The notes under the pieces: generated by a model | Databases searched by the model: none | The model's input: the letters and a program-made list of their open reading frames with translations, nothing else | What the model was told of the DNA's origin: nothing | IMG/VR virus record: IMGVR_UViG_2526164598_000015 | Reading direction: 5' to 3' (one strand) | From: a virus | Lineage: Duplodnaviria > Heunggongvirae > Uroviricota > Caudoviricetes | DNA: 39,465 bases | Position numbers and translations under genes: made by a program | Shown: positions 9,472-10,109 of the stretch, in pieces | Layout of the letters: each line of letters starts with the position of its first letter | Position numbering within the stretch: position 1 is the stretch's first letter

Positions 9472-9585
9472 TCCAAATCTGAATAATTAAATCCAGCACT
9501 GTAAATAAAATTTAATCCTTAACCGGAGGGATTTCTGCACCCTCAGAACATCAGGAGGCCGCCCGAAAGGGCGGTGGAGATAATA

Positions 9586-10109
9586 ATGGAAATAACTAAA
9601 GAACGATTATTGGAAATAGCAAATCTTAGTGAAAGGGCATTAAGTGATGGGAGGATTATTTCTCCTGATGCTTATGAATCAGTTACAAGTATAGAAATAA
9701 TAACGATGGCCAGGATGCTTCTTGGTTGCCTCAAAAAAGAATATAAAAAAAGGTGGATAGCAATGCTAATATATATGATATTTTGGACAGTTGGGGGGCT
9801 TGGGCTGCAGCTGGAAATAGTTCTATCAACTGGCAGCAAGTGGCTGATAAATATAAAGATGTAGTACCTCATGGTAAGAAATTACGCCGTCAGTGTGGCA
9901 ACGATGAAGGTCGTATGATTGATACCTGCATGTTGAAGCTTAAACAATATAGAATAGATGACTATGAGTTAATTATCGCTCATTTTGTTATAGGTATATC
10001 TTTGCGTACAATAGCACGAAGGTACAAATGTTCAGATGGAACAATAAGAAAGAATATACAACTTACAATGGGAGTATTGTTAGGATTGTCTTTTTATGTG
10101 CAATTATAG
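9586..10109 (+). pseudogene. Sigma-70 region-4-like HTH protein with reading frame split at an A7 tract (needs a -1 shift at 9745-9751 to fuse 55-codon N-terminal part to 119-codon C-terminal part)
   Basis: Upstream ORF (frame 1) and downstream ORF (frame 0, opens right after TAA 9744-9746) meet at AAAAAAAG; C-terminal part has region-4-like HTH (DYELIIAHFVIGISLRTIARRYKCSDGTIRKNIQ); AT-rich. Confidence 0.4.

Follow-up and report, generated by a model that had tools for sequence, protein, structure and literature searches.

Organization of the Split Gene

The DNA considered here, referred to throughout as the window, is the 39,465-nucleotide (nt) stretch recorded as IMG/VR virus IMGVR_UViG_2526164598_000015, and it represents a Rac-type lambdoid prophage of Escherichia coli. 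On its plus strand, between positions 9586 and 10109, lie two overlapping open reading frames (ORFs) that meet at a run of seven adenines (A7, 9745–9751) followed by a G at 9752, and that together make up a gene for a phage 21-type Q antiterminator (hereafter the Q gene). The upstream frame opens at ATG 9586, with the gene's own ribosome-binding site, a local GGAG (9576–9579), 6 nt before it; it runs through the tract as GAA TAT AAA AAA AGG TGG and terminates at 9862–9864. The product of this ORF (9586–9864) is 92 amino acids (aa) long and consists of 55 native residues (MEITKERLL...KKEYKK, encoded by 9586–9750) and a 37-residue out-of-frame tail. In the −1 frame, a TAA at 9744–9746 is followed by AAA AAG GTG; this frame is open from 9747 to the stop codon at 10107–10109, and counted from GTG 9753 it comprises 118 codons (9753–10109) that specify a complete core of the Q21 family. 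A run of six guanines (G6, 9793–9798), 40 nt downstream of the A run, is the second frameshift hot spot of the gene; it is intact in the window, and G7 alleles of it occur elsewhere.

Joining 9586–9750 to 9750–10109, so that one base is read twice, fuses 55 and 119 codons into a frame of 174, the translation of which is the same at every residue as WP_021526285.1, an “antiterminator Q family protein” of E. coli strain 504838; the native N-terminal segment thus corresponds to residues 1–55 of this intact protein. The junction peptide of the restored full-length product would be EYKKKVDSNANIYDILDSWGAWAAAGNSSINWQQVADK, and a fusion peptide would span EYKKKVDSNANIY. The first-pass annotation, made from the letters alone, had described the two ORFs as one gene split at the A tract, the parts of which a −1 shift would fuse. 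Its layout is correct to the base for every element, and the identity of the re-read product with a deposited protein bears out the fusion. The pairing of the ORFs is not a chance overlap, because close relatives with A8 and distant ones with AAAAAACA at the tract each have a single open frame. Homologs in which the two parts are always separate genes, named in that annotation as evidence that would speak against a split, are not what is found: every stand-alone N-terminal ORF in the databases is a fragment of the long gene, either frameshifted or partial. The split also has a bearing on annotation: a deposited “hypothetical protein” (WP_000406618.1, the exact 92-aa product) and the 118-aa entry “antiterminator Q family protein” represent the two halves of a single gene.

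The split gene is an ordinary case within a known family, a recurrent homopolymer frameshift allele. More specifically, it is likely that the interval 9586–10109 is a frameshift allele of a 174-codon, long-form Q21-type antiterminator gene which has lost one A (A8→A7), and that it represents a recurrent knock-out rather than a programmed frameshift.

Relationship to Phage 21-Type Q Antiterminators

The 118-aa ORF matches the Pfam family PF06530 (Phage_antitermQ) with an E value of 1e-30 and a score of 106.6 bits (cut-off 26), its residues 6–112 aligning with positions 3–109 of the 118-position profile. The intact protein matches phrog_79 (“anti-termination protein Q-like”; E 2.5e-32) and shows a weak similarity (E 9e-4) to the PDB structures of Q21, 6P18 and 6JNX, which spans the core (residues 66–147 on Q21 19–101). 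Weak matches to region 4 of extracytoplasmic function (ECF) sigma-70 factors (E 0.004–0.006) fit the published fold relationship, since the solved Q21 structure reportedly resembles the region 4 domain of ECF sigma factors (bioRxiv 10.1101/651190). The description “sigma-70 region-4-like helix-turn-helix” in the first-pass annotation is thus a fair account of the likely fold, the family being that of the phage 21-type Q antiterminators (PF06530). An AlphaFold2 model, for which 56 long- and short-form sequences were aligned, had a mean predicted local distance difference test score of 56, and of about 40 over residues 1–60, too low for a fold search.

Homology searches distinguish two forms of the protein. 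The long form, of 170–185 aa, occurs in E. coli and Salmonella, its members being 65–97% identical over their full length, while a far commoner short form of 111–118 aa is distributed across the Enterobacteriaceae and is 53–61% identical to the core alone. Short forms start three residues past GTG 9753 of the window and lie at the classical Q site, after rusA and a DUF968 gene and before the holin gene. As the short forms correspond to the core alone, the split occurs where an N-terminal extension specific to this lineage joins a complete core domain. The 55 N-terminal codons match no Pfam family and have a match to phrog_3323. The same module forms the N terminus of two proteins that are otherwise unrelated (P0145 and P0147; 193 and 206 aa), which have other C-termini and belong to no Pfam family; besides these and fragments of the long gene, no stand-alone homologs of the N-terminal part were found. 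Both parts bear the mark of constraint, with ratios of nonsynonymous to synonymous divergence (pN/pS) of 0.2–0.35 for the core and of 0.26–0.4 for the N-terminal part against the most distant long form (L080). Their synonymous divergence differs (pS 0–0.09 for the 55-codon module vs. 0.4–0.5 for the core), which puts a mosaic boundary close to the A run; the N-terminal codons form one mosaic block with the intergenic cassette upstream of them (9488–9576, described below).

The long form was found in none of 50,697 phage genome records; there the core alone (residues 62–168) has matches, as the Q protein of Stx1a- and Stx2a-converting phages and others. So far, the long form has been seen only in bacterial chromosomes, viral-listed IMG/VR contigs, and metagenome contigs. 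Fragments of the split Q gene seem to be the basis of two PHROG families of “unknown function,” phrog_3323 and phrog_5735: the 78-aa product of G7 alleles matches phrog_3323 end to end, and the C-terminal piece aligns with positions 21–88 of the 88-position phrog_5735 profile.

Compared with the Q proteins of phage 21 and 933W (PF06530; 6P18, 6JNX), the core in the window covers nearly the whole family profile, and its short-form relatives (55–60% identity) occupy the usual place of Q ahead of the lysis genes, those of Stx phages bearing the annotation Q. In contrast to these systems, the gene in the window has an N-terminal extension of 55–60 residues, is broken by a frameshift, and directly follows Rac-type replication genes instead of adjoining the late genes; another Q-like gene (DUF1133), only distantly related, stands before these late genes in the window. 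A further parallel may be drawn with AntQ of the Salmonella prophage Gifsy-1, also a Q-like antiterminator of a prophage. Downstream in the window there is a weak isrK-like match (12139–12220, E 0.038), which is below the Rfam gathering score; the gene order differs from that of Gifsy-1, reverse-strand cargo genes and hok/sok intervening in the window.

Homopolymer Alleles and Their Distribution

The closest relatives of the gene carry A8 and read TAT AAA AAA AAG GTG, in frame, and copies that are 88–90% identical carry AAAAAACA, likewise in frame. The intact protein is encoded on 341 + 180 + further contigs (>500). In each of the 54 complete E. coli genomes that carry it, the gene is in frame at a tract of 8 nt, two of these copies being broken by G6→G7 instead, and an 8-nt tract is likewise present in 18/18 IMG/VR copies, two of which carry G7. 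The A8 and G6 runs themselves are confined to one sub-lineage; at these tracts other lineages have AAAAAACA and GGGGAG.

The single missing A is the sole difference of the window's gene from intact alleles, and since the A7 gene carries no further changes the event is taken to be recent. Exact A7 products are on record as WP_000406618.1 and WP_032164359.1, and the allele is present on at least nine contigs from separate assemblies, including the complete genome CP025967.1 and the Logan assembly of SRR11280852. On the metagenome contig L160, A7 occurs on a different, L002-like haplotype, with six differing sites within the 110 nt upstream of the run. Among copies of the window-like haplotype, A7 and A8 are each combined with either state of a single-nucleotide polymorphism at 10136, and are found both with and without a T3→T2 deletion in the neighboring DUF4406 gene, which served as a haplotype marker. 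The occurrence of A7 with both marker states and on a second haplotype indicates that it arose at least twice, and probably more often. The DUF4406 gene (8903–9199, plus strand) is intact in the window; the T3→T2 frameshift belongs to a related lineage (L001, L015, L023, L026, and L029), where RefSeq labels the gene “frameshifted.”

Other alleles broken at the same tracts are an A9 form, the product of which is 58 aa long and ends in KKKGG (five contigs), and G7 forms with 78-aa products on 26 and 4 contigs; G7 was seen in L005, L006, L013, and L019, on two haplotypes. Further frameshifts occur in other lineages (P0140, L157). Overall, frameshifted alleles account for ~4–11% of the copies sampled. 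Judged from these sequences, the A run is likely to be a genuine mutational hot spot and A7 a real allele in nature. With regard to homopolymer phase variation, several tract-length alleles were found on near-identical backgrounds, while the tracts were not maintained across lineages.

Alternative Explanations

The first-pass annotation had offered three explanations for the split, namely a pseudogene, a homopolymer sequencing error, and a slippage-controlled regulator. The first, in the form of a real frameshift allele, is the best supported; an error is possible for this particular assembly, and slippage control is not borne out, since the tract and the split both lack conservation and no stimulators are present. 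If the assembly had miscounted the run, the strain would really be A8 and its gene intact. From 6586 to 12864 the window is 100% identical to contig AIHH01000028.1 of GCA_000250355.2 (L028), one of the A7 contigs counted above, and several observations weigh against our interpretation of the allele. Over the 2053 nt from 9472 to 11524, the window equals four A8 loci (L011, L017, L024, and L025) save for the missing A, and an intergenic run at 11541–11548 is A8 only in this assembly (GCA_000250355.2/L028) as opposed to A6 in 11 related loci. Moreover, natural short forms of 111–118 aa consist of the core alone, so that the 118-codon ORF could be active if it were translated. Isolated run-length differences are also seen in other assemblies, as in L007, which has A6 where the window (10185–10191) and 17 loci have A7. 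Against a miscount stands the presence of the same A7 in at least nine contigs of other assemblies, among them a short-read Logan assembly and a complete genome, and on a metagenome contig with another haplotype. Because A7 exists in nature, nothing about the window requires an error, and we regard one as unlikely. The difference at 11541–11548 may itself be real variation or homopolymer-length noise, which bears on the trust to be placed in the A7 of this record. The possible activity of the 118-codon ORF leads to another reading, according to which the frameshift turned a long form into a working short form translated from GTG 9753, with the 92-aa product being dispensable or having a role of its own. 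The core alone is the commonest architecture of the family (clusters on 586, 391, and 115 contigs, at the classical Q position), short forms begin just after this GTG, and the N-terminal codons, which with the cassette form a block of separate history by their pS, are also attached to the unrelated 193- and 206-aa proteins. However, GTG 9753 has no Shine–Dalgarno (SD) sequence at a usable distance, an AAGG abutting the start codon, and it lies within an ORF that is read through to 9864, precluding coupling by termination and reinitiation. Nor is the arrangement fixed in any lineage, as the stand-alone N-terminal ORFs are all fragments. This conversion to a short form is judged improbable.

The remaining explanation is that expression is controlled by slippage, through a programmed −1 or transcriptional slippage site or through reversible ON/OFF phase variation, which would dose a toxic antiterminator. 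Alleles with A7, A8, or A9 and with G6 or G7 are found on backgrounds that are nearly identical, and they recur on more than one haplotype; a −1 event in the A7 allele gives exactly the wild-type protein; and toxicity has been reported among Q-like proteins (PMC4825925). Where the allele is intact (A8), a dnaX-type heptamer, A_AAA_AAG, is in register, and a −1 shift on it would stop after two codons to give a 58-aa product, as in the formation of the dnaX gamma protein. This heptamer is the most shift-prone in E. coli (PMC5009743), and as in −1 frameshifting of E. coli dnaX and insertion sequence (IS) elements, the A run is read as Lys codons by a single tRNA-Lys and the event gives a defined second product. 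Unlike dnaX and the IS elements, the Q gene is without a downstream stem-loop, the 121 nt of 9730–9850 folding no better than shuffled sequences (z −0.40), and no SD-like stimulator lies 10–14 nt upstream of the A run. The heptamer is missing from other lineages, which have AAAAAACA and GGGGAG in place of the runs, so that the A8 heptamer is given little weight; in A7, the zero-frame register is U_AAA_AAA followed by AGG, and A_AAA_AAG lies in the −1 register. The two-frame layout is itself unconserved, given the in-frame tracts of the complete genomes and IMG/VR copies, and frameshifted alleles form only the small fraction of copies given above. Bacterial transcriptional slippage has been reported on runs of nine A or T (PMC5009743), and the run in the window is of seven. 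A closer likeness may be sought in the “savior” indels of the herpes simplex thymidine kinase G7 run and in contingency loci, in which +1 and −1 homopolymer alleles knock out a gene with a possibly harmful product and slippage could yield a trickle of full-length product (PMC5009743); the Q alleles likewise recur on different backgrounds. The Q tracts differ in being short (8 and 6) and lineage-specific, and selection, residual expression, and switching are without support here. Control by slippage in any of these senses is thus held to be very improbable. A more elaborate proposal is that, in the sub-lineage that gained the A8 and G6 runs, these provide reversible switching or a slippage “dimmer” for a toxic Q-type antiterminator acting early, which would gate entry of the Rac-type prophage into its nin-region and late program; this is very doubtful. 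Were it true, lysogen populations would be mixtures of inducible and locked prophages, and slippage on A7 would supply a trickle of the full-length protein.

Predicted Consequences of the A7 Allele

Under the preferred reading of a frameshift knock-out, replication slippage on the A8 homopolymer would have removed one A to give A7, and translation from ATG 9586 would leave the native frame past codon 55 and terminate at 9864. Full-length Q would then be lost or made only in trace amounts. Such traces might arise if the P-site tRNA-Lys made an unprogrammed −1 slip on AAA AAA while the rare AGG codon was waiting to be read, or if RNA polymerase inserted an extra A, and either route would restore exactly the wild-type protein; low-level restoration of this kind is plausible. 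The core is probably not made in quantity, because GTG 9753 lacks a usable SD sequence and is inside an ORF that is read to 9864. As far as the sequence allows a judgment, A7 is most simply a knock-out allele, with a presumed loss of function. The A8 and G6 runs, having arisen only in this sub-lineage, may act in it as mutational hot spots that lead to recurrent inactivation. When expressed, the Q-like AntQ of Gifsy-1 stops growth and is lethal to the cell (PMC4825925), and by analogy, loss of the Q gene in a lysogen could be neutral or favored.

A Conserved Hairpin Cassette Upstream of the Gene

The region preceding the Q gene is occupied by a conserved, unannotated intergenic cassette of 89 nt (9488–9576, plus strand) that ends just before the ribosome-binding site of the gene. 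It contains two hairpins and an AGGAGG (9553–9558). Hairpin 1 pairs 9526–9530 with 9540–9544 around a 9-nt loop, and hairpin 2 (CCGCCC-GAAA-GGGCGG, 9559–9574) has a 6-bp G+C stem and a GNRA-type loop. The cassette ends with the T after this stem, beyond which sequences diverge. The tetraloop hairpin that the first-pass annotation had noticed between the AGGAGG and the start codon is real and stable; it is not specific to the Q gene, belonging instead to a widespread element. Copies of the cassette were found at 3820 places in 2526 of 5426 complete E. coli genomes, with up to six in one genome and never annotated, and in more than 120 IMG/VR contigs; near-identical versions of hairpin 2 occur in thousands of copies in E. 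coli prophages. The cassette always closely precedes a start codon, the genes that follow it being unrelated, and in lambdoid phages both of the early operons contain it.

Across 36 distinct variants, 94% of cells are paired in hairpin 2, with one compensatory change and no excess over shuffles, and for both hairpins together 95.5% of cells pair, the shuffle control doing likewise and one pair being changed on both sides. Changes in the stem of hairpin 2 are mostly C→T, which keeps G–U pairs on this strand. An RNA structure backed by covariation was accordingly rejected, as the comparison of the 36 variants with shuffles gave no evidence beyond sequence conservation, and the 131 nt of 9480–9610 fold no better than shuffled sequence (z −1.31). 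A search of Rfam 15 (E up to 1) returned no match for the cassette and none at 9472–9585, the only matches being sok (11806–11980) and the weak isrK-like one, and a full-text literature search found the hairpin sequence in no paper. An intrinsic terminator at 9559–9574 was also considered and dismissed: there is no T run on either strand, TGGAGATAATAATG following the stem on the plus strand and CCTCCTGATG on the other, and a terminator scan was empty there.

In phage T4 genes 38 and 25, the ribosome-binding site is bridged by a hairpin between the SD sequence and the AUG, which would shorten the effective distance between them. The cassette resembles these sites in that its AGGAGG is parted from the start codon by a stable hairpin, and in most cassette copies the start codon lies ~9–11 nt after the stem. 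It differs in that the Q gene has its own GGAG before the ATG, and in that the stem has no support from covariation. By analogy, a possible role of the hairpin would be to bring the AGGAGG nearer to the start codon.

Prophage Context and a Candidate Q Target

The window carries, in order, an integrase gene, a large ORF (1419–3890; recE in a related Rac-type locus), and genes for a repressor, Cro, YdaT, and a replication protein, followed by DUF977, DUF4406, and DUF4752 genes and the Q gene. Beyond Q come a reverse-strand, two-gene cargo (10115–11524), hok/sok, and a strong terminator (12199–12226), and then a DUF968 gene, rusA, the second Q-like gene (DUF1133, 13990–14544), a methylase gene, three tRNA genes, and the lysis and structural genes. 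The same order is found in other genomes with different cargo.

A 12-mer, GCGTACGCAAAA (11582–11593, plus strand), is a candidate cis element linked to this Q subfamily. It is present in 26 of 155 fetched loci, all 26 of which carry this Q subfamily in its long or short form, whereas it is missing from all 115 loci that lack this Q. Each of the 26 has a single copy, always on the same strand and downstream of Q just past the variable cargo, at a distance from Q of 1.5–2.9 kb depending on that cargo; the flanks of the 12-mer are unrelated between cargo types. In short-form loci, it is located 14 nt after a TATAAT and ~60 nt before the terminator and holin. No promoter layout around the 12-mer is shared between cargo types, and it is unlike the TGAGCA direct repeats of the phage 21 Q-binding element (PMC6606751); neither a Q-binding element nor a pause element was identified after the Q gene. 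The interval 11525–12240 spans the 12-mer, the hok region, and the terminator at 12199–12226. From its distribution, the 12-mer is a candidate for part of the Q target, or for a cargo-boundary site.

Intact long-form Q would be expected to antiterminate at a site that lies past the reverse-strand cargo genes and before hok, the genes for DUF968 and RusA, and the DUF1133 gene. If the 12-mer is part of the Q target, long-form Q would let transcription pass the hok terminator and proceed toward the second Q-like gene. Should long-form Q be shown to control read-through into DUF968, rusA, and the second Q-like gene, then the recurrent homopolymer knock-outs would be an easy way for Rac-type prophages to end up locked into their hosts. 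Three side results of this analysis may prove more useful than the frameshift itself, namely the 12-mer, the variable cargo slot between Q and the 12-mer, and the 89-nt cassette carried by nearly half of complete E. coli genomes.

Neighboring Genes

The cargo on the minus strand (10115–11524) encodes a DUF6731 protein of 304 aa and a 159-aa membrane protein. PADLOC gave only a weak RexB match for the membrane protein (E 0.0015), and the two genes could be a RexAB-like pair. Elsewhere, the same slot holds genes for a hypothetical protein and a nucleoid-associated protein, and at short-form Q loci for a DNA methylase and an AAA_15 ATPase. The hok/sok system occupies 11806–12226 on the plus strand (Rfam sok, 108 bits), with the hok ORF at ~11916–12128 and the terminator at 12199–12226 overlapping the isrK-like match.

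The second Q-like gene (plus strand, in the interval 13990–14655) is of the DUF1133 type, with a weak match to PF06530 (E 1.9e-6) and a match to phrog_753 (“anti-termination protein Q-like”), and its presence means that the prophage carries two Q-type genes in series. When the two were compared directly, only an L..WG.W motif was found in common (E 0.42). The second gene is followed by a short leader or transcript and a terminator, AACCCGCTTTATGCGGGTTTTTTT, before the methylase, tRNA, and lysis genes. The three tRNA genes (16223–16472, plus strand), situated between the methylase gene and the lysis region, have the anticodons CAT, TCG, and TCT; the first was called tRNA-Met by ARAGORN, and the corresponding gene in the related prophage L154 is tRNA-Ile in RefSeq.

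Farther downstream, an apparent in-frame stop in the tail-fiber gene J was rejected, as the interruption is in fact a separate small lipoprotein-like ORF upstream of J. This ORF (34493–34843, plus strand) carries a lipoprotein-type signal (MNKTILFCTIIALTGC...), lies just upstream of J (34910–37711), and looks like a moron, as accessory genes inserted into phage genomes are called.

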